Source of the DNA: Deltaproteobacteria bacterium
GTDB lineage: Bacteria > Myxococcota_A > UBA9160 > SMWR01
Length of the DNA stretch: 64,000 nucleotides
Reading direction: 5' to 3'
NCBI GenBank assembly: GCA_032128115.1
Contig: JAQBHB010000041.1
Span: forward strand, 27,753-91,752
Shown piece after piece: positions 1-44,395 of this stretch. The translations under genes and the position numbers were made by a program. Each line of letters opens with the position of its first letter. The first letter of the stretch is position 1. The notes below the pieces were generated by a model. It was not told the DNA's origin, ran no database searches, and saw only the letters and a program-made list of their open reading frames with translations.

Positions 1-884
1 TGCTCTCGGCCTATGCGCCCGCGCTGATGGCCGCCGTCGGTTTCGGCGTCATGGGGGTGCTGGCCATGGCGCTGATGACCTATTCGGCCGCGCGGCTCGG
101 CCAGGGGCTGGTGCGTCCGATCAATCTCCTCTACCACGGCCTGCGCAGTGCCGCGCGCGACGAGCTGGTGGATCAGAATCTCCCGTTGCGCGGAGCGGTG
201 GGCGAGATCGAGTCGCTGCTGATTGCCTTCAATGCCATGGCCGATCGTCTGCGCGCGCGCACCCACGAAACCGCGACCCATTCTCGCGCGCTGCAGGATC
301 AGAACCAGGCATTCCAGCAGCATCACGAAAACCTGCAGAAGCTTTCCATCACCGACGAGCTCACGCAGCTCCACAACCACCGCTTCTTCCAGGATCACCT
401 GGGGCGCGAGATCAAACGCCTGGGTCGAACCGGTGAGACGCTGGCGCTCCTGCTCGTCGACATCGACTTCTTCAAGAAGCTGAACGACACCTACGGTCAC
501 GCGGCCGGCGACGAATTCCTGCGCCAGATCGCCCGTATCATGAGAGAGATGGTGCGCGACACGGACCTGCTGGCCCGCTACGGGGGCGAGGAGTTCGCGA
601 TCGTCGCCACCGAGACGACCATGGAGGGCGCGATGATCCTGGCGGAGAAGATCCGCATGTCCATCGCCGAGGCCTCGTTCATCGTCGACGACACCATGCG
701 ACCGCGGAAGGCCACCGTTTCCATCGGAGTGGCCCAGTTCAACGGAAGCCGCACGGACCTGTTCAACTCGGCGGACGCGGCTCTCTATCGAGCCAAGGAT
801 GGCGGTCGCAACTGCGTGATCGCGGCCAACGACGACGAAGCCCAGGACCACCCCGAGCTCGGCGGAGCCGATCCGGCCTCCTGA
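1..884 (+). CDS. HAMP-GGDEF diguanylate cyclase, 5'-truncated by the window edge
   Basis: The frame is open from nt 3 to the edge. A hydrophobic helix and a HAMP-like linker precede a GGDEF domain (VDIDFFKKLNDTYGHAAGD, RYGGEEF, SIGVAQF, ADAALYRAKDGGRNC). Confidence 0.9.
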   Translation, partial: LSAYAPALMAAVGFGVMGVLAMALMTYSAARLGQGLVRPINLLYHGLRSAARDELVDQNLPLRGAVGEIESLLIAFNAMADRLRARTHETATHSRALQDQNQAFQQHHENLQKLSITDELTQLHNHRFFQDHLGREIKRLGRTGETLALLLVDIDFFKKLNDTYGHAAGDEFLRQIARIMREMVRDTDLLARYGGEEFAIVATETTMEGAMILAEKIRMSIAEASFIVDDTMRPRKATVSIGVAQFNGSRTDLFNSADAALYRAKDGGRNCVIAANDDEAQDHPELGGADPAS

Positions 885-7326: not shown

Positions 7327-8745
7327 ATGGATTCGATCTATTTCTGGCCGGACAATCCGGCGGCTTCGATCTGCGCACTGGCCGGGATCAGCATGATCTT
7401 CCTGTGGGCGGCTCGGGAGCCCATGCTCCAGATGCTGCGAAGCCTGGGGAAGGGACTCGAGAGCGGTCTGCGGGCGGTGGCCCGATGGTGCGCAGAGACG
7501 GCCGAGAACCTGCAGCGCCGCAGTACCGAGGCCCTGCTGGCCGCCGGCGAGCTCGAGCTCAACGGCAAGGTCGAGCGCGAGCTCCAGAAGATCGATGGCA
7601 GCTTCGCCCAGAAGGTCGGCCAGTATTCCACGCTCCACCGGCGACTCGACGATCTGCTCAACCACCTGGACACGGACTACAAGAACTGCGGCGACTCGCC
7701 GCCGGACGTGCCGGGTTGGGCACCCGCGGTGGAAGCCGTGGCCAACATCCCGGCCGCCGCCGACCCCAACGTGAAGAAGGTGTTGGAGGGGATCCAGGGC
7801 TCCCTGGAGGACGCCGGGAAGAAGGCCCTCAAGAATTATCGCGACGAGAGCTCCAAGCGGCACGGTCTGCTGAACAAGATGCGGCCGGACTGGAAGGAGG
7901 TTCGCGGCTTGATGGCGCGCATGCAGGACATGGCCGCCAAGGCGCTCCAGATCACCGGAAAGATCGATCGCTTCGTGGACGAGTACGCGCAGGTCCTCAA
8001 GGACCGCGACTCGGCCGCCAAGGCGCTCACGTACTCGGCGTTCAAGCCCTTCATCATCTCGCTGATCGTGATGGGCGTGGCGCTTGGGGGCGCCTTCATC
8101 AACTTCCAGCTGATCGCCCTCCCCATGTCGGAGTTGGTGCCCGCGGGCGCCCGGATCGGCGGGCTCCCGGTCTCCACGGTCTCGGCCCTGGTAATCGTTC
8201 TGATGGAGGCGGCCCTCGGAATCTTCCTGATGGACATGCTGGGCATTACCGACCTGTTTCCGAAGCTCAGCGCGGTGGCGCCTTCGCGGCGCCGGCTGAT
8301 CCTGTGGATGGCGACCCTGGGCCTGTTCTTCCTGGCGTCGGTGGAGAGCTCGCTGGCGATCCTGCGCGAGCAGATCGTCGAGGCCGATGCATTCCTCAAG
8401 CTGTCGTTGGCTGGCGTGGAGAACAACGTTGTGGCGCGGCCCACCTCTTCGTCGATTCCCGTCATCGGGCAGGCGGTGCTTGGCTTCGTGCTGCCCTGGA
8501 TCCTGTCCATGGTGGCGATTCCGCTGGAGATGTTCCTGGACAGTGGCCGTCACGTATTGGCGCGGGCCTCGGTGTTCGCGCTCCACCTGGTGGGTCACGT
8601 GATGACGATTGCAGCGCACCTGGCCAAGTACCTGACGAGCGCGATCCCCAGCATCTACGACGTGTACGTGGCTCTCCCCCTGCGCATCGAGCGGATGATC
8701 CGAAAGGCGGACCCGGTGAGCATCGACGACGCGGAGGTGGCGTGA
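7327..8745 (+). CDS. Hypothetical polytopic membrane protein with a long N-terminal coiled-coil-like soluble region
   Basis: 472 aa. One N-terminal TM helix is followed by ~200 aa of charged, heptad-like sequence and then about 5 TM helices. GGGGGGAGG lies upstream of the ATG. I recognise no family. Confidence 0.6.
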   Translation: MDSIYFWPDNPAASICALAGISMIFLWAAREPMLQMLRSLGKGLESGLRAVARWCAETAENLQRRSTEALLAAGELELNGKVERELQKIDGSFAQKVGQYSTLHRRLDDLLNHLDTDYKNCGDSPPDVPGWAPAVEAVANIPAAADPNVKKVLEGIQGSLEDAGKKALKNYRDESSKRHGLLNKMRPDWKEVRGLMARMQDMAAKALQITGKIDRFVDEYAQVLKDRDSAAKALTYSAFKPFIISLIVMGVALGGAFINFQLIALPMSELVPAGARIGGLPVSTVSALVIVLMEAALGIFLMDMLGITDLFPKLSAVAPSRRRLILWMATLGLFFLASVESSLAILREQIVEADAFLKLSLAGVENNVVARPTSSSIPVIGQAVLGFVLPWILSMVAIPLEMFLDSGRHVLARASVFALHLVGHVMTIAAHLAKYLTSAIPSIYDVYVALPLRIERMIRKADPVSIDDAEVA

Positions 8746-11096: not shown

Positions 11097-11175
11097 GCCC
11101 GTAACCCCTCCTCCGGACTCGCCCGCGGCACCGGGGTCCGGATAAGATGAAAGTCTACATGAGAAGCACGCTCCC

Positions 11176-14100
11176 ATGACCCTTCGCTGCCCCGCCTGCG
11201 ACCACGAGAACCGATCGGGCCGTCGCTTCTGCACCGAGTGCGGCTCGGGTCTCCCCCACCCGTGTCCGGCGTGCGGCGCCGAGAACGAGACCCGCGACAA
11301 ATTCTGCGGCCAGTGCGGAGCGGCGCTCGTCGCGGGTCGGACCTACGCAGCGCCGACCTCCGCCGAGGCGGCGCCCGCCCCTCGCGACTACACCCCCCGG
11401 CACCTGGCCGAGAAGATTCTCACTTCGAAGAGTTCCCTGGAAGGCGAGCGCAAGAACGTCACGGTGCTCTTCGCCGACGTGGCCGGCTACACCTCGATTG
11501 CCGAGGCCTCGGACCCGGAAGCCATGCACGCGCTCATGGATCGCTTCTTCCAGCGCGTGCTGGCCGAGGTACACCGGGTCGAAGGCACGGTAAACCAGTT
11601 CACCGGCGACGGTGTGATGGCGCTGTTCGGGGCGCCGATTGCCCTGGAAGACGCGCCGCGGCGCGCCGTGTTGGCCGCCCGCGCAATCCAGCGGGCCATC
11701 GAGCCCCTGGGCGACGAAGTCCGCGAACGCCTGGGTGTGGACTTCCGCGTGCGCATCGGGATCCACACCGGGCCGGTGGTGGTGGGGCGCATCGGCGACG
11801 ACCTGCGCATGGACTACACGGCTGTGGGGGATACCACGAACCTGGCCGCACGCCTGCAGCAGTTGGCCGAACCCGGCGCGATCTTGATCTCCAGGGCCAC
11901 CCAGCAACGGGTCGACCCGTTCTTCGAATTGACCGACCTGGGAGAGCTGGCCGTGAAGGGCAAGGCGCAACCGGTTCGCGCCTTCCAGGTCGGGGCCGAA
12001 CGCCCGGTGAGCGGTCGCGTGGAAGCGGGCGCCGGCGCGGGCCTCACGCCGCTGGTGGGGCGCGAGCGCGATCTGGCGACCGTGGCGTCGGCCTTCGACG
12101 CCGCCAGGAGCGGACGCGGCCAGGTGGCATTCCTGGTGGGCGACGCGGGCATCGGAAAATCGCGTCTTCTCTACGAGTTCCGGAGTCGGCTGGCCGATCG
12201 ACCCCACACCTGGTTCGAGGGACGCTGCGCGGCGTACGCGCGAGCCAGCGCCTTCCAGCCCGTCGTGGACGGCCTGAAGCGACTCTTCGGAATCGAAGAC
12301 CGCGACGACGACGCCAGCATGCTCGCCAAGATCGATGACGGCATCGCGGCGGCACCCGGCGAACTGGCCTGGACGATCCCATTCGTGCGCGTGCTGCTCT
12401 CGCTACCCGCCGGGGATCCCGCCGTCGAAGCCATGGACGCCGCCGGACGCCGCAGCGAGAGCATCCGCGCGTTGTACGCCTTCTTCTTCGCCTACGCTGA
12501 GGCCGCCCCCCTGGTGTTCGTGATCGAGGACCTGCACTGGATCGACCCGGCGTCCGAGGAATTCCTGGGCTTCCTGTCGGATTCGCTGCCAGCCTCCAAG
12601 GTGCTCGCGGTCTACACCCACCGCCCGGGCTATCGCCACCCCCTCGGTGACCGCAGCTACCACGTGCGGGTGGCGTTGCAGCCGCTCTCGACCCACGAGA
12701 TGACGACCATGGCCGGAGTCCTGATGGAATCGGGAAGGCTTCCGGAGGCGCTGGGGGAGTTGATCGCCTCCAAGGCCGAGGGAAATCCATTCTTCGTCGA
12801 AGAAGTCACCAAGTCGCTGCTTGACGACGGGGCTGTTCGCATCGTCGACGGCAGAGTCGAGCTGGCGCGCGATCTCTCGGAGATCTCGGTGCCTGACAGC
12901 ATTCACGACGTCTTGATGGCGCGAATCGACCGACTGTCCGACGAGCCCAAGCACGCCATCCAGGTGGCCTCCGTCATCGGTCGCGAGTTTGCCCTGCGCC
13001 TGCTGCAGCGCATCACCGACGCAGGCGACGCGGCGTCGGCGGCGGTAGAGGAGCTGCGCTCGCTCGAGCTGATCTACGAGAAAGCGGCGCACCCGGAACT
13101 GGCGTTCATGTTCAAGCACGCGCTCACCCACGACGTGGCGTACGAGAGTGTCCTGGTCCAGCGGCGGCGGGCCCTGCACCAGATCGTGGGGACCGCCATC
13201 GAGGACCTCTACCAGGATCGCCTGGCCGAACACTACGAATCGCTGGCGCACCACTTCGCCCGGGCCGAAGACTGGGAGCGGGCGTTCCTCTACCACGGGC
13301 AGGCCGCCGAGAAGGCCGCCGCCGCCTACGCGAACCATTCGGCGGCCGAGCACTACCGGGAGGCCCTGGCCATCGCCGGGCGCCTGGGCGACAGCGTGTC
13401 CCGATCGCTTCTGCAACGGCTGAGCGAGGGGCTGGGCAGCGTGCTGTGGCTGCTGTCGTATTTCGATCAATCGGGCGATGCCCAGCTGCGCTCCGCCGAG
13501 TGGGCCGACAACCCTGCGACGCGCGCCCGGAACCTGGCCTGGGCAGGCCACGGGAAACTCTGGGGCCACGACTACGCCGAGGCTCGCGCGTGCGCCGAGC
13601 GTGCCATCGAAGTCTCCCGCGAACACGACCTGCCCGGCGCCCATGCCCTGGCCCTCGCCTGTCTGGACGAAGACGACCTGGTGCACGGGCGCGTCACCGA
13701 CGACTCGCTGGCGGCCGAGGCCATGCGCCTGGCGGAGATCTCGGGCGACCCGGAGGCCCGGATCCTGGCCCTGCAGCAGATGTTGCAGCGCCTGGAGTGG
13801 CGGGGGGAATTCCGCGAGGCCCTGAAGGTGGGCAAAGCCGCCATCGCCATCGCGCAGGAAAAGCGGCTCAGTACCCTTGCAGTGTTTCCGTCGTGGTTCT
13901 GCGGGCTCGCACTCACCTGCCTGGGCGATTACGGAACGGCGCTCGAGTGGATGCAGGGTTCGCTGGACGTGTGCGGGCGCCTGGGCGACCGCGCACTCTC
14001 GGCGCGGGTGCTCAATACCCTGGGCTGGTGCTATGCGGAGTTCGGCGCACACGATCGCGCCAGCGAGTTCAACCGCCGCGGCGAGGAGATGGCCCGCGAG

Positions 14101-14706
14101 ATCGTAGAGCTACAGGTGGTGGCGAGCGCTCCGGAGCTCCACGCCAACGCCGCGATCAACCTGGCCGGCAACTACGTGGCCATGGGAGATCCGGAGCGTG
14201 CCGACGCCCTGGTGCTGCCCATCCGGGAAGAGCTATCCAAGCCTGGCGATCCGTGGCAACGCTGGCGCTACTCCATGCATGTCAGCCACGCGTTGGCCCG
14301 GGTGGCGCTGGCGCGGCACGACCCGGAGACGGTGCTGCGACTCACCCAGGAGGAGTTGGACGCCGCCCGGGCCAACCCCTCGCGAAAGATCGAGGCACGG
14401 GCGCTCGAGCTTCGCGGTCGCGCCCTCCTGATGAAGGACGAGCGAGACGTCGCCGAGGAAACCCTGCACCGGGCGCTCGAGATCGCCGTCGCCATCGAGT
14501 ACCCGCCGGTCCAGTGGCGCGCCCACGCACTCCTGGCGGAGCTCTGGCGCCGGCGTGACGACGCGCCCCGGGTGGAACGCAGCCTGGCCTCGGTGCGCAC
14601 GCTGATCCGGCACCTGGGCAGGTCCATCCCCGACCCGGATCTCCAGCGCGGGTTCCGGGGGCTGGCCGATCGCCTGGAAGCCGACCCGTTCGCCGCCTGT
14701 CGCTGA
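11176..14706 (+). CDS. Double zinc-ribbon / class III adenylate-guanylate cyclase / AAA(STAND) ATPase / TPR signalling protein
   Basis: 1176 aa. Zinc ribbons: CPACDHENRSGRRFCTECG...CPACGAENETRDKFCGQCG. Cyclase core: VTVLFADVAGYTSIAE, FTGDGVMALFGAP, RIGIHTGPVVVG. P-loop: LVGDAGIGKSRL. The C-terminal half is a long TPR-like helical region. Confidence 0.9.
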   Translation: MTLRCPACDHENRSGRRFCTECGSGLPHPCPACGAENETRDKFCGQCGAALVAGRTYAAPTSAEAAPAPRDYTPRHLAEKILTSKSSLEGERKNVTVLFADVAGYTSIAEASDPEAMHALMDRFFQRVLAEVHRVEGTVNQFTGDGVMALFGAPIALEDAPRRAVLAARAIQRAIEPLGDEVRERLGVDFRVRIGIHTGPVVVGRIGDDLRMDYTAVGDTTNLAARLQQLAEPGAILISRATQQRVDPFFELTDLGELAVKGKAQPVRAFQVGAERPVSGRVEAGAGAGLTPLVGRERDLATVASAFDAARSGRGQVAFLVGDAGIGKSRLLYEFRSRLADRPHTWFEGRCAAYARASAFQPVVDGLKRLFGIEDRDDDASMLAKIDDGIAAAPGELAWTIPFVRVLLSLPAGDPAVEAMDAAGRRSESIRALYAFFFAYAEAAPLVFVIEDLHWIDPASEEFLGFLSDSLPASKVLAVYTHRPGYRHPLGDRSYHVRVALQPLSTHEMTTMAGVLMESGRLPEALGELIASKAEGNPFFVEEVTKSLLDDGAVRIVDGRVELARDLSEISVPDSIHDVLMARIDRLSDEPKHAIQVASVIGREFALRLLQRITDAGDAASAAVEELRSLELIYEKAAHPELAFMFKHALTHDVAYESVLVQRRRALHQIVGTAIEDLYQDRLAEHYESLAHHFARAEDWERAFLYHGQAAEKAAAAYANHSAAEHYREALAIAGRLGDSVSRSLLQRLSEGLGSVLWLLSYFDQSGDAQLRSAEWADNPATRARNLAWAGHGKLWGHDYAEARACAERAIEVSREHDLPGAHALALACLDEDDLVHGRVTDDSLAAEAMRLAEISGDPEARILALQQMLQRLEWRGEFREALKVGKAAIAIAQEKRLSTLAVFPSWFCGLALTCLGDYGTALEWMQGSLDVCGRLGDRALSARVLNTLGWCYAEFGAHDRASEFNRRGEEMAREIVELQVVASAPELHANAAINLAGNYVAMGDPERADALVLPIREELSKPGDPWQRWRYSMHVSHALARVALARHDPETVLRLTQEELDAARANPSRKIEARALELRGRALLMKDERDVAEETLHRALEIAVAIEYPPVQWRAHALLAELWRRRDDAPRVERSLASVRTLIRHLGRSIPDPDLQRGFRGLADRLEADPFAACR

Positions 14707-14769
14707 CGCCCCGCCGATCCGGCCGTCGCCGACGGTGACTTTTCCAGGTCATGCGTCTAGGCTGGGGGC

Positions 14770-16008
14770 GTGCCCGTCGAGATCACCTGTCCCGAGGTCT
14801 TCGGGGTCACCGAGTCGAGCCTGACCCTTGCCTTCGACGTAACGGAGGGCCCCCGCGCCCTGGACCTCGAAGCCCGCGTGCTCCTGAACGATCAGGTGCA
14901 CGCCGTCTCCGAAGGCATGGGAACGCGGCTGGTCCGCATGGAAGGGCTCGAACCGGACACCACCTACCGCATCCGCATCCAGGTGGGTGGCGCCCCGGAA
15001 GCGGCGAACGACCGCTACTTCCCCGAAGCCGTCACGACGCTACCGACCGCACCGGGCGCTCCGGTGGGCTCGTTCGCCACCCTGAACGATCTCCACTTCG
15101 GCGAACTCCGCTTCGGCGGCATGCTCGCCCCCGACGGCGAGTTCGCCGGCGAAGCGCCGGGCTTCGGCATCGCCAAGGCCACGGACACGGATGTGCCCTA
15201 CTGGCGCTTCATGAACGAGGACGCCATCGCCGAGATCAACGAGACCGGCGTGGACCTCACGATCATCAAGGGCGACATCGCCGATCGGGGGCGTCCGGAA
15301 CAATTCGAGGACGCGGCCGCGGCGTTCTCCGGATTCTCCATGCCCCACCACGCCTTCCTGGGAAACCACGACTACTACGGGCTCGAGGCGGGCCTCGATG
15401 TCGACGGATACGCCCTGTTGGGGCAGCCGCGCGCGCCGCGCAGTCTCGATCTCGGCGGTTGGCGCCTGGTGCTGCTGGAAACGGTGGAGCCCGGCGAGCA
15501 CCACGGCGTGTTCGGCGAGGAGCGACTTCGCTGGCTCGACGAGACACTCCGCGAGACCCGCGAAACGCGCACGCCCACAATGCTCTTCATGCACCACCAC
15601 CCGGTGCCGCCCGAATTTCGCAATGGCTACCCCAATACCATCGGGATCGATCCGGAGCACTCGGTGCGCCTGTTCGACACCCTGGGAAGTCACCCCCAGG
15701 TTCGCGGCGTGCTGATCGGCCACACCCACCGCAATCGTATTCGACATTACTCGGAGTCGGGCCCGATCCCGTTCATCGAGGTGAATTGCACCAAGGACTA
15801 CCCCGGCGGCTTCGCCCACTATCGACTCTTCGAGGACGGGAGCTTCCGCCAGGAGGTGAGGCGCACGTCCAGCGAACGGGCACTGGCCCACTCGTCGCGC
15901 TGCCGTGATTTCTTCAAGGGGGGCTACCGGAACTTCGCCCTGGGCGCTCTCGAGACCCGAAGCTTCGCCGTGGGAGAGCCCCGGAGCCGGACCGGAGCGG
16001 GAGTCTAG
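14770..16008 (+). CDS. Calcineurin-like metallophosphoesterase with an N-terminal FN3/PAP-like domain (class III phosphodiesterase-like)
   Basis: GTG start. The motif series is LNDLHFG, IIKGDIADRG, LGNHDYY, FMHHHP, GHTHRN. Confidence 0.8.
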   Translation: MPVEITCPEVFGVTESSLTLAFDVTEGPRALDLEARVLLNDQVHAVSEGMGTRLVRMEGLEPDTTYRIRIQVGGAPEAANDRYFPEAVTTLPTAPGAPVGSFATLNDLHFGELRFGGMLAPDGEFAGEAPGFGIAKATDTDVPYWRFMNEDAIAEINETGVDLTIIKGDIADRGRPEQFEDAAAAFSGFSMPHHAFLGNHDYYGLEAGLDVDGYALLGQPRAPRSLDLGGWRLVLLETVEPGEHHGVFGEERLRWLDETLRETRETRTPTMLFMHHHPVPPEFRNGYPNTIGIDPEHSVRLFDTLGSHPQVRGVLIGHTHRNRIRHYSESGPIPFIEVNCTKDYPGGFAHYRLFEDGSFRQEVRRTSSERALAHSSRCRDFFKGGYRNFALGALETRSFAVGEPRSRTGAGV

Positions 16009-16010
16009 CC

Positions 16011-16760
16011 GTGGCAGGACTGGTGGAAGGCAAGGTCGCGCTGGTCACCGGAGCCGCGTCCGGAATCGGGCGCGCCACGGCGCAGGCCCTGGCGCGCGAG
16101 GGTGCTCGCGTGATGCTGTCGGACCTGGATGACGACGCGGGCCAGAAGGCTGCCGCGACGCTGCCAGGGGCCCGCTACGTGCACTGCGACGTGACGAGCG
16201 AAGACGGCGTGAAGGCCATGGTTGCCGCAACCCTCGACGCCTACGGGCGACTGGATTGCGCCGTCAACAATGCGGGCATTACGCCGCTGCCAGGCCCGCT
16301 CCACGAGCTTGCGCTCGACGAATGGAACCGCACCTTGACGATCAACCTCACCAGCGTCTTCTTGTGCATGAAGTACGAGATCCCCGTGATGCAGAAGCAG
16401 GGCGTCGGGTCCATCGTCAACATGGCCTCGGGAGCGGGGATCGTGCCCACACCCGGCCTGGTGAGCTACTGCGCGTCGAAGCACGGCGTGCTGGGGATCA
16501 CCAAGACCGCCGCGGTGGAGAACGCGACCACCGGGGTGCGGGTGAACGCCCTGTGCCCAGGCTGCATCGACACGCCCATGCTGCGCACCACCATGGATCG
16601 CGACCCAAAAATCGAGAAGATGATCCTGGCCTCGCTTCCGGGCGGCCGCCTGGGAAACCCGGAGGAAGTTGCTGAAGCGGCGGTGTGGCTGTGCTCGGAT
16701 CGCGCATCGTTCATCTCCGGCGATTCGATGCTGGTGGACGGCGCCGCGGTGGCGCGCTAG
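16011..16760 (+). CDS. SDR family oxidoreductase (FabG-like)
   Basis: Motifs VALVTGAASGIGRA, NNAG and YCASKHGV. The gene begins 2 nt after the upstream stop. Confidence 0.9.
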   Translation: MAGLVEGKVALVTGAASGIGRATAQALAREGARVMLSDLDDDAGQKAAATLPGARYVHCDVTSEDGVKAMVAATLDAYGRLDCAVNNAGITPLPGPLHELALDEWNRTLTINLTSVFLCMKYEIPVMQKQGVGSIVNMASGAGIVPTPGLVSYCASKHGVLGITKTAAVENATTGVRVNALCPGCIDTPMLRTTMDRDPKIEKMILASLPGGRLGNPEEVAEAAVWLCSDRASFISGDSMLVDGAAVAR

Positions 16761-16774
16761 CTCGAAGCGTCGCA

Positions 16775-17644
16775 GTGAAATTCATCACGTCGCTGGCCTT
16801 CCAGGACCCCACCCACGCCTGCTCCGTGGCGCGGGTCGCCGACGAGTGCGGCTGGGACGGAGTCATGGTCTCGGACCATGTCGTGCACCCGGAGAAGATC
16901 GAGTCGCCCTATCCCTATACCCGGGATGGCGCTCCCCGTTGGGAGGCGCCGGCTCCCTGGCCCGACCCCTGGGTCGCCATCGGCGCGATGGCCGCAGTGA
17001 CCGAGCGGCTGCGCTTCTACACCGGCATCTACGTGCTGCCCCTGCGCAATCCCTTCGTCGTGGCCAAAGCCATCGGAACGGCGGCCGTCATGTCGAACAA
17101 CCGCGTGGTGCTTGGCGTGGGCGCGGGATGGATGCGCGAGGAGTTCGAGCTGCTGGAACAGGGCTTTCGGCAGCGAGGCCGGCGCATGGACGAAATGATC
17201 CAGGTGATCCGCCTTCTCTGGGGCGGCGGCATGGTGGAGCACCACGGCGAGTTCTACGACTTCGATCGCCTCCAGATGAGCCCGGCGCCCAGTGAGCCGA
17301 TTCCCCTGTTGGCGGGCGGCCTGTCCGAGCCGGCGCTGCGCCGCGTGGGTCGCCTGGGCGACGGTTGGATCTCCGATATCCACACCCGCGAGGAACTCCG
17401 TCAGATCGTGGAACGCATCCGCGCCTATCGGGCCGAGTACGGTCGTGCGGACGAGTCCCTGCAGATCGTGGCCGCCTGCTCCGACACCTTCGACGTGGAC
17501 GGCTTTCGCCGCCTGGAGGACGCGGGCGTCACCCACCTGCAGACCATGCCCTGGTTCTTGTACGGCGGCTCCTCCGATTCCCTGCAGGACAAGATCGACG
17601 GCCTGCGCCGCTTCGCCGACCAGATCATCGCCAAGCTGCGTTAG
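16775..17644 (+). CDS. Luciferase-like monooxygenase (LLM) family, F420-dependent-type oxidoreductase
   Basis: GTG at 16775, in frame within ORF 16685..17644. LLM-like sequence includes CGWDGVMVSDHV, RLRFYTGIYVLPLRNP and GVGAGWMREEFE. Confidence 0.75.
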   Translation: MKFITSLAFQDPTHACSVARVADECGWDGVMVSDHVVHPEKIESPYPYTRDGAPRWEAPAPWPDPWVAIGAMAAVTERLRFYTGIYVLPLRNPFVVAKAIGTAAVMSNNRVVLGVGAGWMREEFELLEQGFRQRGRRMDEMIQVIRLLWGGGMVEHHGEFYDFDRLQMSPAPSEPIPLLAGGLSEPALRRVGRLGDGWISDIHTREELRQIVERIRAYRAEYGRADESLQIVAACSDTFDVDGFRRLEDAGVTHLQTMPWFLYGGSSDSLQDKIDGLRRFADQIIAKLR

Positions 17645-17671
17645 GGCCATCTCTGGTATAGATCCGCAGCG

Positions 17672-20600
17672 ATGGGCCATCCGTTCGGATTCCCCTGGCA
17701 CCTGGTCGTGGACGTCCGGAGGCGCGAGCGCTCGCGGTTCCTGTTCTTCGCGGGCCTGGCCGCTCTCGTGAGTGCCGCCCAGACCCTGGGGCTGGTGGGA
17801 TCGGAAGCCCTCTTCCTGTCCCGCTTCGGAGCCGTCCGACTCCCCGAGGCCTTTATCGCCGCCGCTTCCGTCACGGTGGTGGGCACCTTCGGATACGCCA
17901 CCGCCGTGGGCCGCCTGCGCAACGACGGACTCTTCCTCCAGATGGCACTGGGCTCGGCGGTCCTGCTGGTGGGAGCGGCCTGGGTCGCCGACGCGTCGCC
18001 GGACCTCGTGCTCCCGGCGCTCTTCTGCTTCTACTATCTGTCCCAGGCGATCTTCATGAACCACTTCTTCACCTTCGCCGGCGACTACTTCGACACCGCC
18101 AGCAGCAAACGCCTGTTCCCGCGCTTCACGATCGCCGCGAGCCTGGGCAGTGCAGTGGGCGCGGGACTGGCGGTGGCGGTGGCGCGATTCAGCGACCCGC
18201 TGCTGCTCATCGGCGCGTGGGGGGCGGGGTTGGGAGTGGGCGCCCTGCTGCTTCGCCTGGGTCGGCGACCCCTGCGACGCTGGGGCCCGCTGGAACTCGA
18301 GGAGGCGGACGAGACGTCCGTCGAAGGCATGCAGGGAGCGGTGCGTTTCCTGCGCGCCACTTCTCTCGGCCGGACCCTCGCGCTGTCGGCCGCCGGGATG
18401 GTGCTGGCGCTCTTCGTCGCCCAGTACCTGTACTCGGGTGTCTTCGTGGAGCGGTTTCGCGAACCGAGCCGCCTGGCCACATTCCTGGGGCTCTACCTGC
18501 TGATCACCAACGCGGTCGAGATCGTCATCGGCTTCGGGTTGACGCCCCGGTTGATCCGGCGCCTGGGTGTGCCCAGCGCCAACCTGGTGCATCCGGTTCT
18601 CAGCTTGCTGAGCTTCGTCGGCCTGGGCTTCCAATACGGCTACGCCAGTGCGGTGGCCGCGCGCGTGAACCGCGAGATGGTCGACAACTCCATGGGGTTC
18701 CCGATCCGGTCGTTGGTGATCAACGCCCTGCCCCTGCGTTTTCGCGGCCGGGTGCGCGCGTTTCTCGAGGGCGTGGTGGTGTACGTGGGCATGGCGGCGG
18801 CGGGACTGCTGCTTCTGGTGCTTGGCGACCCGGACCCGCAGCTGCTGTGTCTGGCCGGGGGCGCCGCCGCCCTGGTCTTCCTGGCTGCCAACGTGCGGGT
18901 ACGCCGCGAGTACGTGCTCGCCCTGGATGGCGCCATGCGCAGGGGTCAGCTGGACATCGAAGAGGTGAGCGACGAGCTCGGCCGCTGGGAGGCCTCGCGC
19001 CTGGCGGATCTGTGGGAGGCGCTGCTGGCCGACACCGAGGGCGGGGCCATGGAGCCCCTGCTGAAGCTGGTGCCCAGCCTGGCCGCCCGCGGCATCCACG
19101 CGCCGCTGGTTCGCGCCGCCTCGCATCCGAACCCCGGCGTGCGCAGGGCCTGCCTCGAAGCCCTGGCGACCCACGCCCGCGATGAAACCGGGGGCACCCT
19201 GGCCCTGGCCCTGGACGACCCGGACGCAGAGGTGCGGATCACAGCCCTGCGCGGACTCGCGGCCCTCCAGAGCGCCGAGAGCTTCCTGGCCCCGCGGCTG
19301 CGCGAACTGGTGAGCGATCCCGACCCGCGGGTGCGCGCCGAGGCGGCGCTCCAGACCGGCGACAAGGGCCTGGCGGCGCTGGCCGCGCAGATCGGATCGG
19401 ACGATCCGCTGGCCGCCACATCGGCGCTACGGGTGGCCCCCGCCGAGCTGCTTCACGCCGTGCTCCGCCGGGTACACGACACACACCCGGGGGTGCGTTC
19501 GGCGGCCCTGGAGCGAACCGCCGTCATTTCCGAGCGAGCTCCCCTTTCCGGCGATGCCCTCGGCGAATTGCTGCAGGATCCCGACGCCCGCGTGCGGCGG
19601 GCGGGCGCGATCCTGGTGGCCACCTTTCCCGGCGGCGACGCCGCCGCCCGACTGGCGGACGCCCTGGCGGACATCGCGCCCCCGGTCCGGCTCGAATGCC
19701 AGCGCGCTCTCTGCGCCATGGGCGACGCGGGGGTTGCGGCGGTCCGGCCGCTGCTCCGCTGCGAACGCGAGCGCCTGATCGAAGCCGCGCTTCCGATCCT
19801 GGCCGCCGCCCCGGGCGCGAGTCAGGAGCTCGGGCGCGAGCTGCACTGGCGGGTTCGCGAGCTGTGGATCGACGTGGTGGCCCATCAGCACCTGCCCCGC
19901 GGCGAGGACCTGGCCTCGCGCTTTCTGCTCGTCGCTTATCGCGACGCCATCGCGCGTCACGAGAGACTCACGTTCAAGATCCTCGAGTTTCTGGTCGGGG
20001 CGCCGTTGATCCGACGGGTGGAACGCGCGCTGCGCTTCGGCTCGCCCCGTGCACGCGGCGACGCCCTGGAGGTGCTCTCGAACCTGGGCGATCGCGGCTC
20101 GGCATCGCTTCTGGCACTGCTGCACGAGGCGGGTCCACTCGATGAGCGGACCGCCCAGGCTTCGAAGCTGTTGGAGCTACCCGCCGACACGGCGCAGGTG
20201 CTGGAGCGTTCCCGTCGCAGCCAGTCGCATTGGATCCGGTTGGCGGCGAACGCCCTTTTCGACGACGATTTCGAGCCCCGGGAGGTGGATGTCATGGAGA
20301 GACTTCTGGCCCTGCGACGCGTACCGCTGTTCGCCACGCTGAGCCTCGAGCAGCTGGAGGCCCTGCAGCGGATCGCGAAGGAAGTGGAATACCTGCGGGG
20401 CGAAATCATCTGCCGCGAAGGCGAACCCGGCAGCGAACTGTTCGTGGTGATGGACGGGGACGTACGGATCGTGAAGAGTCATGGTGAGCCCGACGAAACT
20501 CCCCTCACCTTGTACCGAGCGGGAGGCTATTTCGGCGAGATGGCGATCTTCGGGGGCGAACGGCGGACCGCCACCGCCAGGGCCGAAGAGACGTCGCGGG

Positions 20601-20725
20601 TTCTGAGCATCGATGGTCGCAGTCTCAAGGAGCTGATCCTCCAGATGCCGGAAATCTCCTTCGAGATCTTCCGCGAGCTGACACAGCGGGTACGAAAGGC
20701 CGAAGAACGAAGCACCCAGCGCTGA
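17672..20725 (+). CDS. MFS/nucleotide-transporter-like membrane domain + HEAT repeats + C-terminal cyclic-nucleotide-binding domain
   Basis: 1017 aa. The first ~400 aa is polytopic. The middle has HEAT-like repeats (HPNPGVRRACLEAL, DDPDAEVRITALRGL, SDPDPRVRAEAA, DPDARVRRAGA). The C-terminal cNMP-binding fold includes VPLFATLSLEQLEAL, GEPGSELFVVMDGDVRI, GGYFGEMAIFGGERRTATARA. Confidence 0.85.
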   Translation: MGHPFGFPWHLVVDVRRRERSRFLFFAGLAALVSAAQTLGLVGSEALFLSRFGAVRLPEAFIAAASVTVVGTFGYATAVGRLRNDGLFLQMALGSAVLLVGAAWVADASPDLVLPALFCFYYLSQAIFMNHFFTFAGDYFDTASSKRLFPRFTIAASLGSAVGAGLAVAVARFSDPLLLIGAWGAGLGVGALLLRLGRRPLRRWGPLELEEADETSVEGMQGAVRFLRATSLGRTLALSAAGMVLALFVAQYLYSGVFVERFREPSRLATFLGLYLLITNAVEIVIGFGLTPRLIRRLGVPSANLVHPVLSLLSFVGLGFQYGYASAVAARVNREMVDNSMGFPIRSLVINALPLRFRGRVRAFLEGVVVYVGMAAAGLLLLVLGDPDPQLLCLAGGAAALVFLAANVRVRREYVLALDGAMRRGQLDIEEVSDELGRWEASRLADLWEALLADTEGGAMEPLLKLVPSLAARGIHAPLVRAASHPNPGVRRACLEALATHARDETGGTLALALDDPDAEVRITALRGLAALQSAESFLAPRLRELVSDPDPRVRAEAALQTGDKGLAALAAQIGSDDPLAATSALRVAPAELLHAVLRRVHDTHPGVRSAALERTAVISERAPLSGDALGELLQDPDARVRRAGAILVATFPGGDAAARLADALADIAPPVRLECQRALCAMGDAGVAAVRPLLRCERERLIEAALPILAAAPGASQELGRELHWRVRELWIDVVAHQHLPRGEDLASRFLLVAYRDAIARHERLTFKILEFLVGAPLIRRVERALRFGSPRARGDALEVLSNLGDRGSASLLALLHEAGPLDERTAQASKLLELPADTAQVLERSRRSQSHWIRLAANALFDDDFEPREVDVMERLLALRRVPLFATLSLEQLEALQRIAKEVEYLRGEIICREGEPGSELFVVMDGDVRIVKSHGEPDETPLTLYRAGGYFGEMAIFGGERRTATARAEETSRVLSIDGRSLKELILQMPEISFEIFRELTQRVRKAEERSTQR

Positions 20726-20735
20726 CTTGCGCCTT

Positions 20736-20770
20736 CCCCCCCTGCGGCCCATCCTTCCGGGCCGGGGGGG
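20736..20770 (+). terminator. GC-only stem-loop downstream of the cNMP-binding gene
   Basis: C7-tgc-GGCCC pairs with GGGCC-G7 around the loop atccttcc. It starts 11 nt after the stop. The T-tract is weak (attcgtt). Confidence 0.35.
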
Positions 20771-20782
20771 GATTCGTTCCAG

Positions 20783-21238
20783 GTGATCACCACCGTGATG
20801 TCCGCGGTGATCGGCGCCGAACGCGATCGCGTGTGGCGTGCGCTCACCGTGCCCGACGAGATGATCCGCTGGGACGCGCGGATGGTCGCCATTCTCGACT
20901 CGCCAGAGGGTTACCCCCGGATCGGCGAGAAGGTCCGCTGGCGCTACCGCCTGGGAAAGATTCCGATCATCCTCACCGAACGGCCCCTGGAGGTTGCGCC
21001 CGGCGAGCGGCTGCGGGCCGCGATCACGCTGGGACTCATCCGCTTCGAAGAGACGTACACCCTGGACCTGGAAAATGACGCGGCGCGGCAAACCCGGCTC
21101 ACGCTCAAGCTCTGCGCCAAGAGCGAGGTTCCCATGATGGGTGGAGTGGTGGACCGCTTCGACGTGCGACGCATGGCCACGGAGCTGATCGACGAACGCC
21201 TGCGGTCGGTCCAGAAATGGTGCGAGGAGCAGCCCTGA
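20783..21238 (+). CDS. SRPBCC (AHSA1/START-like) domain protein
   Basis: 151 aa. The N-terminus is typical of the family (IGAERDRVWRALTVPDEMIRWD). GTG start. Confidence 0.65.
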   Translation: MITTVMSAVIGAERDRVWRALTVPDEMIRWDARMVAILDSPEGYPRIGEKVRWRYRLGKIPIILTERPLEVAPGERLRAAITLGLIRFEETYTLDLENDAARQTRLTLKLCAKSEVPMMGGVVDRFDVRRMATELIDERLRSVQKWCEEQP

Positions 21239-21260: not shown

Positions 21261-22562
21261 TCAGATGTGAAGCTCCTCCAGGACCCAGCGGCGCGGGTCC
21301 TCGAAGCGGCTCCGCGCCAGGGGCGAAAGGTCGAGATCTTCGAAGCGGCCGCTCGCGATCAGCGACGCCATGGCGCGCGCCACCCCGTACGATTGCATCA
21401 CGCCGCGCCCCGTGAACGAGTGGGCTTCGTACAGGTTCGCGAAACCGTCCACCCGCCCGGCGATTCCGCTGCGATCCGGGGTCACTGCGTACAGACCCGA
21501 CCACCCGCGCACGTGGCCGCAGCGCTCGAACGAGCTGCAGCGGTGGGCCAGGCGCGGCCAGATCTGCGCCTCGAAGAATTCGTCGCCGTCGTAATCAAAG
21601 TCGAAGCCCGGCGCCTCGTCGGGTGTGGAGTAGCCGGCCAGGATGTAAGGCCCCTCCGGGTGGAAGTAGAGCCCGCTGGGATCCACCAGCATCCCCAGGC
21701 CTTCGAGCGACACACCCGGGGCCAGGTCGCCGCGATGCACGTCCACCAGCGAGATCTGTCGTCGCACCGGCTGGGTGGCATCGGTAACGCCCACTTTCGC
21801 CGAGAACATGCCCGACCAGGCCCCCAGGCAATTGACCACCACGTCGCATTCCATGCGGACCTCGCCCACGACGGCATCCGGCGGCACGCGATGGGTCACG
21901 AGGATTTCGCGCACGGTTCCCGGTTCGTCCGAGGGGCTGCCGCGCGCCACCTCGATCACGTCCACGGCCTGCACCCGCCGCAAGCTGCCGGCGGCGCCTG
22001 CGGCTCGACTCGTCGACACGCCGCCCACGTAGTGGCGATTGAGAAAGCGCACCCCGAGCCGTTCAGCCTCCGCCCGATACCAGGCGCGTACCGCGTTGGG
22101 GTTCACGAGGCCGTCTCGCGGCGAGAATGTGGCTCCGATGATCTCGTCCATGGCGCGATCCAGCAGTGGAAAACGCTTGCGCACCTCCACGGGCGTCAGG
22201 ATCTCGACGCCAAGGCCTCGAGCGTTCTGGGTGTGCCTTATTTCCAGGGCCCGCTCGTACAGCGCAGGGTCCGAGTAGAGCCACAGATAGCCCTGCGCGC
22301 GGAAGCCGAACTCTTCGTGGTGGTCGTGAAAGAAGTCCAGAGTCTCGCGACAGCTCTCGATGTTGACCGGCTGCCACCAGGTGGCGCGCGCCCCACCCGC
22401 GTTGAGTTCGGACGAGGCGTAGACTCCGGCGAGATCGAGGTCGAGGACGGTAACGCCATCGATTCCGCGGCTCGCCAGGGCCCACGCCAGGCTGGTCCCG
22501 ACGATACCGCCACCCACGATCAGGACGTCGGCCCGCTCCCCCACGAATTCAGGGTAGGGCAC
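21261..22562 (-). CDS. FAD-dependent oxidoreductase (DAO / glycine-sarcosine oxidase-like)
   Basis: The N-terminal dinucleotide fold is ADVLIVGGGIVGTSLAWALASRG. At 433 aa the length fits the DAO family. Confidence 0.8.
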   Translation of the reverse strand: MPYPEFVGERADVLIVGGGIVGTSLAWALASRGIDGVTVLDLDLAGVYASSELNAGGARATWWQPVNIESCRETLDFFHDHHEEFGFRAQGYLWLYSDPALYERALEIRHTQNARGLGVEILTPVEVRKRFPLLDRAMDEIIGATFSPRDGLVNPNAVRAWYRAEAERLGVRFLNRHYVGGVSTSRAAGAAGSLRRVQAVDVIEVARGSPSDEPGTVREILVTHRVPPDAVVGEVRMECDVVVNCLGAWSGMFSAKVGVTDATQPVRRQISLVDVHRGDLAPGVSLEGLGMLVDPSGLYFHPEGPYILAGYSTPDEAPGFDFDYDGDEFFEAQIWPRLAHRCSSFERCGHVRGWSGLYAVTPDRSGIAGRVDGFANLYEAHSFTGRGVMQSYGVARAMASLIASGRFEDLDLSPLARSRFEDPRRWVLEELHI

Positions 22563-42928: not shown

Positions 42929-42935
42929 ACGAACC

Positions 42936-44395
<1,460 letters not shown>

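Follow-up and report, generated by a model that had tools for sequence, protein, structure and literature searches.

A candidate cyclic-nucleotide signalling operon around an NTT-HEAT-cNBD protein in a Myxococcota genome

Do six neighbouring genes that would write, erase, and read a cyclic nucleotide (cNMP) form one signalling circuit, or are they an inherited neighbourhood? The question is raised by a locus in the window, the 64,000-nucleotide stretch of a Myxococcota MAG analysed here, which a sequence-only reading had described as a self-contained module.

Layout of the six-gene block

The six genes, their coordinates from 11176 to 21238 on the + strand, and the successive gaps of 63, 2, 14, 27, and 57 nt agreed with the ORF list, and Pfam and NCBIfam confirmed the domain content proposed for all six. 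GC by codon position was of the coding type in 6/6 genes (GC3, 0.85-0.87; GC2, 0.45-0.50). The flanking genes lie on the opposite strand on either side, and the co-directional arrangement with tight spacing fits an operon, as judged from the sequence. In two relatives (L150 and L154), overlapping stop/start codons were found in the metallophosphoesterase (MPE)/SDR, LLM/cNBD, and LLM/beta-lactamase-fold gene pairs, which ties MPE-SDR and LLM-cNBD into a single transcription unit. Oxidoreductases are frequent in the surroundings (GMC, DAO, a second LLM, and ECH).

A promoter of the operon would be expected in the divergent intergenic region. A consensus scan found no sigma-70-like site there, this consensus not being informative for Myxococcota, and a folding test found no significant RNA structure in the same region. 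A GC-rich hairpin was found before the SRPBCC gene (MFE -37.3 kcal/mol versus -24.9 +/- 2.8 for shuffles, z -4.45). No clear T-run follows it and a terminator scan gave no call; a role as a partial terminator, or in stabilising the mRNA, is conceivable.

Table 1 Coordinates of the six genes, their domains, and the bounding features in the window.
Feature	Residues (aa)	Position (nt)	Strand	Basis or remark
GMC oxidoreductase		start near 11097	-	divergent from cyclase gene; upstream bound of block
Divergent intergenic region, 78 nt		11098-11175	.	GMC oxidoreductase/cyclase gene interval
Gene 1, cyclase protein	1176 in all	11176-14706	+	Pfam
Gene 1, double Zn-ribbon (DZR)	2-51	11179-11328	+	Pfam
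Gene 1, class III nucleotide cyclase	92-265	11449-11970	+	Guanylate_cyc, 84.9 bits
Gene 1, STAND-type ATPase	292-477	12049-12606	+	AAA_16, 92.8 bits
Gene 1, TPR	~798-1107	13567-14496	+	Pfam
Gene 2, MPE, predicted cytoplasmic	412 in all	14770-16008	+	Pfam Metallophos, 49.5 bits
Gene 2, N-terminal beta-sandwich	1-95	14770-15054	+	weak fn3 and Pur_ac_phosph_N matches
Gene 2, class-III-PDE/GpdQ-like catalytic domain	~100-330	15067-15759	+	sequence and structure matches
Gene 3, classical SDR oxidoreductase	249 in all	16011-16760	+	adh_short_C2, 239 bits
Gene 4, luciferase-like oxidoreductase (LLM)		16775-17644	+	Bac_luciferase, 168 bits
Gene 5, NTT-HEAT-cNBD protein	1017 in all	17672-20725	+	Pfam, AF2, Foldseek
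Gene 5, NTT(TLC)-like membrane domain, ~11-12 helices	1-430	17672-18961	+	Foldseek, profile
Gene 5, HEAT solenoid	~440-880	18989-20311	+	Pfam HEAT_2
Gene 5, cNBD	~885-1010	20324-20701	+	cNMP_binding, 76.4 bits, aa 905-990
GC-rich hairpin		20735-20772	+	cNBD gene/SRPBCC gene gap
Gene 6, SRPBCC (Polyketide_cyc2/AHSA1-like)	151 in all	20783-21238	+	Polyketide_cyc2, 33.3 bits
DAO oxidoreductase		21261-22562	-	convergent; downstream bound of block

Predicted properties of the gene products

The best PDB sequence matches of the gene 1 cyclase were CyaB (3r5g, E 2e-31) and CyaC (1wc0). Both metal-binding Asp residues (D101 and D145) and the transition-state residues N222 and R226 were present; the domain looks catalytically complete, consistent with its predicted role as the writer. 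At the substrate-specifying positions, where inspection for Lys/Asp or Glu/Cys had been proposed, we found neither pair but Q141/T215, and Gln/Thr occurred in 121/124 family members. The adjoining ATPase carries Walker A (GDAGIGKS) and Walker B (VFVIEDLHW) motifs, as read from its sequence. The cyclase family is very large and rich in paralogs (7995/8000 scored candidates at E<=1e-30), and homologues with 59% identity occur in unrelated gene contexts, sometimes as tandem copies; adjacency of this cyclase may thus carry little specific meaning.

The five motifs reported for the MPE were confirmed and were invariant in 26 homologues (D107/H109, G168-D169, G198-N199-H200-D201, H275/H276, and G317-H318-x-H320). 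The catalytic domain is preceded by a domain with weak matches to fn3 (E 0.014) and Pur_ac_phosph_N (E 0.023) and followed by a conserved C-terminal region of ~80 aa. Sequence matches in the PDB included GpdQ (5.7e-11) and Rv0805 (6.4e-10), and the top Foldseek matches of the AF2 model (pLDDT 89.7) were GpdQ 3d03, Rv0805 3ib7/2hy1, PAP PPD1 3zk4, 2nxf, and Lmo2642 2xmo, with 19-21% identity to the nearest structures (Rv0805 and GpdQ class). No signal peptide was found on reading the sequence, so the enzyme would act in the cytoplasm. The MPE is thus predicted to be a competent binuclear metallophosphodiesterase in the GpdQ/Rv0805 structural neighbourhood.

Its assignment as the cNMP eraser was weakened. 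The scores were far under the NCBIfam cutoffs for CpdA (44.5/225 bits) and SpdA (63.8/400 bits), the latter being the best NCBIfam match. Furthermore, these motifs and a comparable locus had led to the prediction that SpdA of S. meliloti is a cAMP PDE, yet it turned out to be a 2',3'-cNMP PDE with undetectable 3',5'-cAMP activity, and both SpdA and Rv0805 prefer 2',3'-cNMP (PMC4222275). Because SpdA, predicted likewise, was no cAMP PDE, the substrate is not readable from the motifs or the sequence of the MPE, and cNMP degradation is putative.

In the gene 5 protein, the HEAT and cNBD parts were as previously described, but the membrane domain was NTT(TLC)-like rather than generically MFS-like. 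Foldseek matched it to the ATP/ADP translocators NTT1 of C. pneumoniae (9j3n, TMt 0.70) and AtNTT1 (9j3l, TMt 0.73), and a profile of the N-terminal domain gave 9j3n as the top PDB match with an E value of 1.4e-4 and a marginal 24 bits. Pfam TLC was sub-threshold (11.3 versus 21 bits) and is recorded for ~15/120 homologues. The AF2 model had a pLDDT of 84.9 and a pTM of 0.59, so that its inter-domain geometry is uncertain. The canonical phosphate-binding-cassette residues of the cNBD (G955, E956, R965, and A967) were invariant in 23 homologues, in keeping with the predicted reader function. The protein is a member of the NTT(TLC)-HEAT-cNBD fusion family, which is vertically inherited; homologues with 44-64% identity occur across Myxococcota and Vulcanimicrobiota, mostly without an adjoining cyclase.

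The SDR passed the PRK07231 subfamily cutoff (264.8 versus 215). Its frame is intact in the window, and the public MAG copy is frameshifted by a 1-nt insertion in a G-run. For the LLM gene, the ORF list gave a start at 16685 or 16775 and an end at 17644; the product belongs to TIGR03619 (Rv2161c-type, F420-dependent; 227 bits versus a cutoff of 166.9).

Linkage in relatives and competing readings

Linkage was counted by unbiased sampling of species-level relatives. The most conserved neighbour of the cNBD gene was SRPBCC, which followed it in 23/29; on the upstream side, LLM was found in 14/35, SDR in 10/35, MPE in 8/30, and the cyclase in 1/24. In 29 more distant relatives, the cNBD gene had none of these five partners. 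Counted from the MPE side, adjacency to the cNBD gene was found in 7/25 and a cyclase upstream of the MPE in 1/28, and about two thirds of the MPE-anchored loci had no cNBD gene and unrelated neighbours. Absence of conserved linkage, named in advance as evidence against a module, is largely what was found outside one sub-clade.

These graded counts would fit an inherited neighbourhood with no dedicated circuit, which we regard as a tentative but serious alternative. NTT-HEAT-cNBD and SRPBCC would be the sole stable pair and the cyclase an incidental paralogous sensor. As part of the same proposal, the MPE would be a general phosphodiesterase of the 2',3'-cNMP, glycerophosphodiester, or nucleotide-diphosphate type, partnered with SDR and LLM in small-molecule metabolism without second-messenger turnover. 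Indeed, MPE, SDR, and LLM occur together without the cNBD gene in four lineages, the region is rich in oxidoreductases, the nearest structures of the MPE include GpdQ, the ADPRibase-Mn-like 2nxf, and SMPDL3A, and the 2',3'-cNMP preference of SpdA and Rv0805 points the same way.

Several features of the linkage argue against this reading. Six lineages, the window among them, have the cyclase upstream of the cNBD gene; four of these loci came from targeted look-ups and an MPE-anchored scan, outside the unbiased counts. The proposed synteny held in part: L150 and L154 show the complete cyclase-MPE-SDR-LLM-cNBD-SRPBCC order, as does L093 up to the contig end. In L054 the cyclase is present without MPE, and in L151 without MPE or LLM and with a beta-lactamase-fold gene; the cyclase-cNBD linkage thus outlasts swap or loss of the intervening genes. 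The five cyclase-linked loci with a placeable sensor protein, the window included, formed one sub-clade of the tree. In seven lineages of a second, separate clade, SDR and LLM are lost and the MPE lies directly upstream of the cNBD gene. The stop/start overlaps described above also argue against a merely inherited neighbourhood.

Our preferred reading, with a probability of roughly 0.5, is a cyclic-nucleotide signalling operon that is lineage-restricted and centred on the NTT-HEAT-cNBD protein. The STAND/TPR module, a sensor-scaffold, would switch the cyclase on upon a cue. The cNMP made, which would bind the C-terminal cNBD of the gene 5 protein, would probably be cAMP, although with the Gln/Thr pair the base specificity is uncertain or relaxed. 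The HEAT solenoid could relay this binding to the NTT-like domain and alter transport of a nucleotide-like substrate, and the adjacent MPE may limit the signal locally. The SRPBCC protein would be the most constant partner of the sensor protein, and the SDR, the F420-type LLM, and, in relatives, the beta-lactamase-fold enzyme would be co-transcribed, interchangeable passengers; nothing was found tying SDR, LLM, or SRPBCC to a transported ligand, which they had been suggested to process. The cyclase would be an accessory input kept in one sub-clade only, outside which the cNBD would presumably take its signal from other cyclases encoded in the genome.

The signalling operon is supported by the operon-like spacing and the overlaps in L150 and L154, the cyclase catalytic residues, the invariant cNBD cassette, the NTT fold and profile match, and the invariant MPE motifs with phosphodiesterases as the nearest structures. 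Further support comes from the six lineages in which the cyclase precedes the cNBD gene despite differing intervening genes, from the MPE-cNBD adjacency kept in the second clade, and from an independent proposal of cAMP control of NTT-HEAT-cNBD proteins by Major et al. 2017 (PMC5381601). It is weakened by the low cyclase and MPE counts and the 0/29 among distant relatives, by the huge cyclase family and the many MPE loci without a cNBD gene, and by an MPE specificity that motifs do not disclose (PMC4222275) and a gene 5 model pTM of 0.59.

It is also conceivable, albeit improbable, that the locus serves nucleotide uptake or salvage, in which the NTT-like domain moves nucleotides, the MPE processes a transported or related nucleotide (e.g. 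cyclic or diphosphate-linked), the cNBD does no more than adjust the rate, and the presence of the cyclase is incidental. This would fit the NTT fold and profile match, the MPE-cNBD adjacency in about 20 lineages, and the action of MPE structural neighbours on nucleotides (Rv0805, Lmo2642, 2nxf, and SMPDL3A with bound CMP). However, no NTT-HEAT fusion is known to have demonstrated transport activity (PMC5381601). Moreover, the similarity to characterised NTTs is marginal, the MPE would be cytoplasmic, and most MPE homologues are not beside an NTT gene. A Pycsar-like anti-phage system, in which infection would trigger cNMP synthesis and a cNBD membrane effector would kill or arrest the cell, is highly improbable. 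In its favour, the cyclase domain is hit by PADLOC PycC models (best, 84.7 bits) and the cNBD by Pycsar effector models (38 bits), and STAND NTPases such as the one fused to the cyclase are frequent in immune sensors. These matches are domain-level only, however, and would be expected of any class III cyclase or cNBD. The 1017-aa cNBD protein belongs to a vertically inherited family mostly without an adjoining cyclase, metabolic genes are kept in conserved flanking synteny, the window showed no features of mobile elements or defence islands, and the cyclase and the putative effector are three metabolic genes apart.

Comparison with known systems

Castro et al. are reported to have found, in 2005, a Gln/Asn substrate pair and mixed AC/GC activity in M. 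tuberculosis Rv0386. Proteins of the Rv0386 type share with gene 1 the order of a class III cyclase, an AAA/STAND NTPase, and helical repeats, and Gln likewise replaces the canonical substrate-specifying Lys. Gene 1 differs in its N-terminal double Zn-ribbon, in having no LuxR HTH, and in its second specificity residue, a Thr like that of class IIIb CyaC and CyaB in place of Asn.

SLC9C1, CNG/HCN, MloK1, and SthK carry a C-terminal cNBD on a membrane transport domain, as does gene 5. Taken alone, the gene 5 cNBD aligns in structure with theirs and with those of the CRP family (Foldseek TM up to 0.88), whereas its membrane domain is unrelated to theirs (TM of ~0.12 to SLC9C1 over the whole protein), and the linker in gene 5 is a HEAT solenoid of ~440 residues, not a C-linker. 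The MPE shares the five motifs and the binuclear metallophosphoesterase fold with Rv0805, CpdA/Icc, and Enterobacter GpdQ, with added N- and C-terminal regions.

A writer, eraser, and reader in one apparent operon with redox enzymes had been considered unusual; for a writer, putative eraser, and reader in one locus, the S. meliloti cyaD1-clr-smc02178-spdA locus is a precedent, likewise combining a class III cyclase, a cNMP reader, and an MPE with PDE motifs, and SpdA was predicted there to end the signal (Mathieu-Demaziere et al. 2013; PMC4222275). Its reader is a CRP-type transcription factor, whereas the reader here is a transporter-like protein, and the present MPE, with 412 aa and an extra N-terminal beta-sandwich, scores far under the 400-bit SpdA cutoff.

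Among known systems are also the NTT-HEAT-cNBD fusions, known from Deltaproteobacteria and further groups (Major et al. 2017, Genome Biol Evol; PMC5381601), which have the domain order of gene 5: transporter-like, HEAT, and C-terminal cNBD. The Myxococcota clade is so divergent that TLC is sub-threshold in gene 5. No family member is known to have been characterised; that paper proposes that NTT activity is adjusted by cAMP made by an adenylate cyclase and, in the passages covered, gives only a separate cNBD gene as a gene neighbour. What is new here is the linkage of an NTT-HEAT-cNBD gene with genes for a cyclase, a PDE-like MPE, and an SRPBCC protein.

Gene layout and probable co-transcription of the block

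The ORF list contained six plus-strand genes at the positions read from the sequence alone, separated by gaps of 63, 2, 14, 27, and 57 nt. Codon-position GC was typical of real genes in all six, with a GC3 of 0.85-0.87 in a sequence of about 68% GC. Pfam and NCBIfam searches bore out every domain that had been assigned to genes 1 to 6, as listed in the table. The luciferase-like oxidoreductase of gene 4 is denoted LLM below, the metallophosphoesterase of gene 2 MPE, and the membrane protein of gene 5, which carries a cyclic-nucleotide-binding domain, the cNBD protein. A Pfam scan of 46 window ORFs, which took in all but several of those after 52.4 kb, detected no F420 biosynthesis gene.

The block was flanked upstream by a divergent GMC oxidoreductase gene and downstream by a convergent DAO-family oxidoreductase gene; therefore, it was regarded as a discrete co-directional unit. 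In L150 and L154, two loci of relatives, stop and start codons overlapped at the MPE/SDR, LLM/cNBD, and LLM/beta-lactamase-fold gene pairs, which argues for a probable single transcription unit including the redox genes. A promoter and terminator consensus scan gave hits at the chance level, such consensus being uninformative for Myxococcota. The 57-nt gap between the cNBD and SRPBCC genes contained a GC-rich hairpin with a C8...G8 stem, whose minimum free energy was -37.3 as against -24.9 +/- 2.8 in shuffled sequences (z -4.45). The hairpin had no clear T-run after it and was not called by the terminator scan; it may attenuate read-through into the SRPBCC gene.

A public MAG contig (JAQBCR010000071.1; locus L001) was identical to the window over 21 kb, barring one extra G in a G-run, and the gene 5 protein mapped exactly to MAG GCA_032125055.1. 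The extra G puts the SDR gene of the public assembly out of frame, and the call there is 163 aa. The window copy has the gene intact, in agreement with homologues of 249-255 aa, and one copy or the other probably contains a homopolymer assembly error.

Several features of the surroundings were also recorded. The 472-aa ORF upstream of the block had a clear coding GC3 signature (0.90) but matched no Pfam family at E<=0.001. Just beyond its GMC oxidoreductase gene, L150 carried a TIR_2-domain gene, though on the opposite strand. The GAF-GGDEF and GAF histidine kinase genes of the window were syntenic in L150.

Features of the block, its surroundings, and the loci of relatives
Feature	Position	Strand	Content or basis
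Six-gene block	window 11176-21238	+	ORF list
Gene 1		+	double Zn-ribbon, class III cyclase, AAA_16, TPR (Pfam/NCBIfam)
Gene 2		+	Metallophos (Pfam/NCBIfam)
Gene 3		+	SDR (Pfam/NCBIfam)
Gene 4		+	luciferase-like oxidoreductase; exceeds F420-dependent TIGR03619 cutoff (Pfam/NCBIfam)
Gene 5		+	HEAT, cNMP_binding (Pfam/NCBIfam)
Gene 6		+	SRPBCC (Pfam/NCBIfam)
Q141, cyclase substrate-specifying residue	window 11596-11598	+	alignment
T215, cyclase substrate-specifying residue	window 11818-11820	+	alignment
Start of GMC oxidoreductase gene	window, near 11097		upstream flank, divergent
Extra G of public assembly	window ~16273; L001 ~6674		SDR gene
Hairpin	window 20735-20772		gap between cNBD and SRPBCC genes
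Upstream ORF	window 7327-8745	+	472 aa
GGDEF protein	window 27-884		second-messenger/sensor gene
GAF-GGDEF protein	window 23703-24731		second-messenger/sensor gene
GAF histidine kinase	window 27953-30493		second-messenger/sensor gene
Rrf2 regulator, then Suf/NifU-type Fe-S assembly genes	window 42395-48601		housekeeping
B12-binding radical SAM/DUF4070 protein	window 38637-40196		housekeeping
Beta-lactamase-fold gene	L151 8701-9924		immediately upstream of cNBD gene
Beta-lactamase-fold gene	L154 7865-8986		immediately upstream of cNBD gene
DUF488, MoxR-type AAA, and VWA_CoxE genes	L154 12546-16466		inserted between cNBD and SRPBCC genes
Small pilin-like gene	L044 9363-9971 (-)		example
Small pilin-like gene	L053 9286-9858 (-)		example
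Three tandem Zn-ribbon/cyclase/AAA_16 genes	L153 1-13498		paralogues on one metagenomic contig

Cyclase, metallophosphoesterase, and NTT-HEAT-cNBD protein

The best alignments of the gene 1 cyclase domain were to two class IIIb enzymes, CyaB (3r5g) and CyaC (1wc0). The metal-binding residues D101 and D145 and the transition-state residues N222 and R226 were present, aligned to both enzymes, and conserved in at least 118 of the 124 family members, and the STAND module had intact Walker A and Walker B motifs. Class III cyclases canonically carry Lys/Asp or Lys/Thr as the substrate-specifying pair for ATP and Glu/Cys for GTP. The proposed comparison of Lys/Asp with Glu/Cys found neither Lys/Asp(Thr) nor Glu/Cys in gene 1: Gln stood in place of the adenine-specifying Lys (VNQFTGD), with Thr at the second specificity position. 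This Gln141/Thr215 pair occurred in 121/124 members of the Zn-ribbon/cyclase/AAA_16/TPR family (about 1170 aa), indicating a family trait rather than decay; because the pair is non-canonical, the base of the product is uncertain. Relaxed specificity reportedly has a precedent in Rv0386 of M. tuberculosis (Gln/Asn). The family is enormous, with 7995 of the 8000 scored candidates matching at E<=1e-30, and the tandem triple of L153, lying within 13 kb, shows how rich in paralogues it is.

The gene 2 product was predicted to be cytoplasmic and lacked a signal peptide. Its residues D107/H109, GD168-169, GNHD198-201, H275, and GHTH317-320 were invariant in 26 homologues of 64-78% identity, and give the class III phosphodiesterase series D-Xn-GD-Xn-GNH[E/D]-Xn-H-Xn-GHXH on a metallophosphoesterase fold. 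GpdQ (5.7e-11) and Rv0805 (6.4e-10) were the nearest solved relatives by sequence. A confident model (pLDDT 89.7) matched GpdQ, Rv0805 (both at E about 1e-11), the ADPRibase-Mn-like 2nxf, Lmo2642, and SMPDL3A in Foldseek, all of which are phosphodiesterases and not monoesterases. The purple acid phosphatase reading failed on both motifs and scores and was rejected: GDIAD takes the place of GDXXY as second motif, Pur_ac_phosph_N scored 15.7 bits against a cutoff of 30, and the purple acid phosphatase PPD1 superposed poorly (rmsd 17 A). From the motifs, the nearest structures, and these purple acid phosphatase mismatches, gene 2 was therefore placed in the class III phosphodiesterase/GpdQ neighbourhood. 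This is the group that the sequence-only reading had hoped for, but the identity was only 19-21%, and the scores were far under the CpdA and SpdA cutoffs: 44.5 against 225 for the 3',5'-cAMP phosphodiesterase model PRK11148 and 63.8 against 400 for the SpdA model NF050112.

The five motifs are shared by S. meliloti SpdA, which lies in a cyclase/CRP locus and was predicted to end cAMP signalling; its 3',5'-cAMP activity was not detectable, and it hydrolysed 2',3'-cNMPs, its authors concluding that specificity in the class III phosphodiesterase family is unreadable from sequence (PMC4222275). This precedent cautions that an "eraser" label based on gene location can mislead. Such a role for the MPE is plausible but putative, and we consider it less likely than not.

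The sequence-only reading had described gene 5 as an MFS-like/HEAT/cyclic-nucleotide-binding protein. The last two parts stood in Pfam (HEAT_2, 57.2 bits vs a cutoff of 27.7; cNMP_binding PF00027, 76.4 vs 27.5), whereas the generic MFS label was replaced by NTT/TLC on the Foldseek and N-terminal profile matches. An AlphaFold (AF2) model from 23 homologues (pLDDT 84.9, pTM 0.59) predicted three parts, namely a membrane domain of about 11-12 helices, a helical solenoid of about 440 residues (aa 440-880, all-helical), and a C-terminal beta-roll cNBD (903-981). In Foldseek, the membrane domain superposed on two NTT1 ATP/ADP translocators, that of Chlamydia pneumoniae (9j3n, TM 0.70) and that of Arabidopsis (9j3l, TM 0.73). 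SLC9C1 ranked higher, yet its global TM was only 0.12 and its matches reflect the shared cNBD only. A profile of 11 N-terminal domains searched against the PDB gave NTT1 9j3n as the best match (E 1.4e-4); single-sequence phmmer of this domain against the PDB gave nothing relevant. Pfam TLC (PF03219) was sub-threshold for the query alone (11.3 vs 21 bits) and was annotated in about 15 of the 120 closest homologues.

The phosphate-binding cassette, FGEMAIFGGERRTATARA, retains the canonical Gly, Glu, Arg, and Ala, and G955, E956, R965, and A967 were invariant across 23 homologues; because these residues are kept and invariant, binding of a cyclic nucleotide by the domain is likely. Gene 5 thus combines an N-terminal NTT/TLC-type domain with HEAT repeats and a C-terminal cNBD, the NTT-HEAT-cNBD architecture of Major et al. 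2017 (PMC5381601). Its relatives all came from Myxococcota or "Deltaproteobacteria" MAGs, the more distant ones from Vulcanimicrobiota. An actinobacterial origin of the window, suggested by the GC content of about 68% and the F420-type LLM, was rejected on the origin of these relatives and on the exact match of the gene 5 protein to MAG GCA_032125055.1. According to Major et al., this architecture is found in Deltaproteobacteria, cyanobacteria, and oomycetes, and a related NTT-HEAT fusion in Chlamydiae; they noted that no member is characterised and offered the speculation that NTT activity is tuned by cAMP made by an adenylate cyclase (PMC5381601).

Gene linkage in relatives

Linkage was examined by a cNBD-anchored scan with one genome per species (67 loci) and an MPE-anchored scan of metagenomes (80 loci), and all window proteins were then searched against both sets. 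Partners were counted at the species level among relatives of at least 46% identity with enough flanking sequence. The SRPBCC gene was located downstream of the cNBD gene in 23/29 loci, and upstream were the LLM gene in 14/35, the SDR gene in 10/35, the MPE gene in 8/30, and the cyclase gene in 1/24. All five were absent beside the cNBD gene in 29 more distant relatives, which had unrelated neighbours. At the MPE-anchored loci, the cNBD gene followed in 7 of 25 and the cyclase preceded in 1 of 28, the remaining contexts comprising acyl-CoA ligase, sulfatase-like, aminotransferase, and amidase genes identified by motifs. At about 10 loci, a small opposite-strand gene with a type-IV-pilin-like N-terminus (FTLIELMIV...) lay between the MPE and cNBD genes.

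Further cyclase-linked loci were obtained from targeted look-ups and the MPE-anchored scan. The entire block plus its flanks was reproduced in L150 (cNBD 64%, cyclase 73% identity). The order was cyclase-MPE-SDR-LLM-(beta-lactamase-fold)-cNBD with SRPBCC further on in L154, cyclase-MPE-SDR-LLM-cNBD to the contig end in L093, cyclase-SDR-LLM-cNBD-SRPBCC without MPE in L054 (cyclase 57% identity, 99% coverage in tblastn), and cyclase-SDR-(beta-lactamase-fold)-cNBD in L151. The six-gene arrangement is therefore not a one-off. In the linkage check proposed earlier, the full block recurred and the cyclase accompanied the cNBD gene at several loci, but the linkage was narrow.

In a neighbour-joining tree of the cNBD proteins, the placeable cyclase-linked loci (L001/window, L150, L151, L154, and L054; n=5) fell in one sub-clade; L093, whose contig stops partway through the cNBD gene, is absent from it. 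The cyclase was absent from the equally close members L006/L071 and L009/L112 and from L039/L074 (63% identity). The latter pair, off the tree owing to the same kind of truncation, carry a divergent GMC oxidoreductase gene, one LLM-type gene, and then the MPE gene. In a second clade, the MPE gene lay directly upstream of the cNBD gene, the SDR and LLM genes being lost. Cyclase homologues at 59% identity were found in unrelated contexts, and in one further MAG the cyclase and cNBD genes were on separate contigs. The neighbour-joining tree of the cyclases, in which the L054 leaf (a wrong-frame sequence with a long branch) was disregarded, was star-like and left the monophyly of the cNBD-linked cyclases unsettled. 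Read most simply, the cluster is ancestral in one sub-clade and has lost the cyclase repeatedly, the MPE-cNBD adjacency is somewhat more durable than the cyclase link, and the cNBD-SRPBCC pair is the stable core.

Proposed role and comparison with known systems

The best-supported account, to which we give a probability of about 0.5, is a lineage-restricted cyclic nucleotide (cNMP) module. A cNMP whose base is uncertain would be supplied by the STAND/TPR-controlled cyclase and sensed by the NTT-HEAT-cNBD protein through its cNBD, and the HEAT solenoid would couple sensing to the transporter-like domain. The domains, catalytic and binding residues, and folds are shown, whereas the ligand, the coupling of sensing to transport, and transport itself are inferred. 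A stricter form seems rather improbable: a self-contained circuit in which a STAND-gated Gln/Thr cyclase makes a possibly non-canonical cNMP, the HEAT region acts as a lever that directly gates an NTT-type transporter, and a dedicated phosphodiesterase resets the system. If true, it would give a first mechanistic way into the NTT-HEAT(-cNBD) family, whose members are also known from Chlamydia, cyanobacteria, and oomycetes. For the further suggestion that the redox enzymes handle the transported ligand, no link was seen, and the set of SDR, LLM, and beta-lactamase-fold genes differs from one lineage to another.

The main rival, an inherited neighbourhood without a dedicated circuit in which the MPE acts on 2',3'-cNMPs or other diesters, is a serious possibility to which we nevertheless give less credence. 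A nucleotide-salvage module is less likely than this and, in our estimation, quite unlikely. Pycsar-like anti-phage defence, or another defence function, is very improbable and was rejected on the PADLOC result and synteny: the PADLOC matches were at the domain level only, the cyclase and cNBD genes are three genes apart and not a compact pair, the cNBD protein, usually without an adjoining cyclase, shows vertical conservation and not a patchy, defence-island distribution, and the flanks are metabolic and syntenic. The module remains our preferred reading, with the caution that the linkage is narrow.

Every component of the block belongs to a known family, and both the reader family and the idea of its control by cAMP are already published; S. 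meliloti is a precedent for a locus with a cyclase, a reader, and a phosphodiesterase-like gene. What is new is the occurrence, in one myxobacterial sub-clade, of an NTT-HEAT-cNBD gene that shares a predicted operon with a Gln/Thr cyclase of its own and with a predicted phosphodiesterase made distinctive by its beta-sandwich, together with the SRPBCC gene as the constant partner of the NTT-HEAT-cNBD gene across Myxococcota. Proteins of the NTT-HEAT and NTT-HEAT-cNBD types have a wide distribution that takes in free-living bacteria, Chlamydiaceae, cyanobacteria, and oomycetes, and no member has been characterised (PMC5381601). A predicted operon with its own cyclase and phosphodiesterase-like enzyme, found in one myxobacterial sub-clade, supports the published guess that cAMP controls NTT-HEAT-cNBD transporters, and the block offers a matched gene set and a concrete, testable route into this widespread transporter family.
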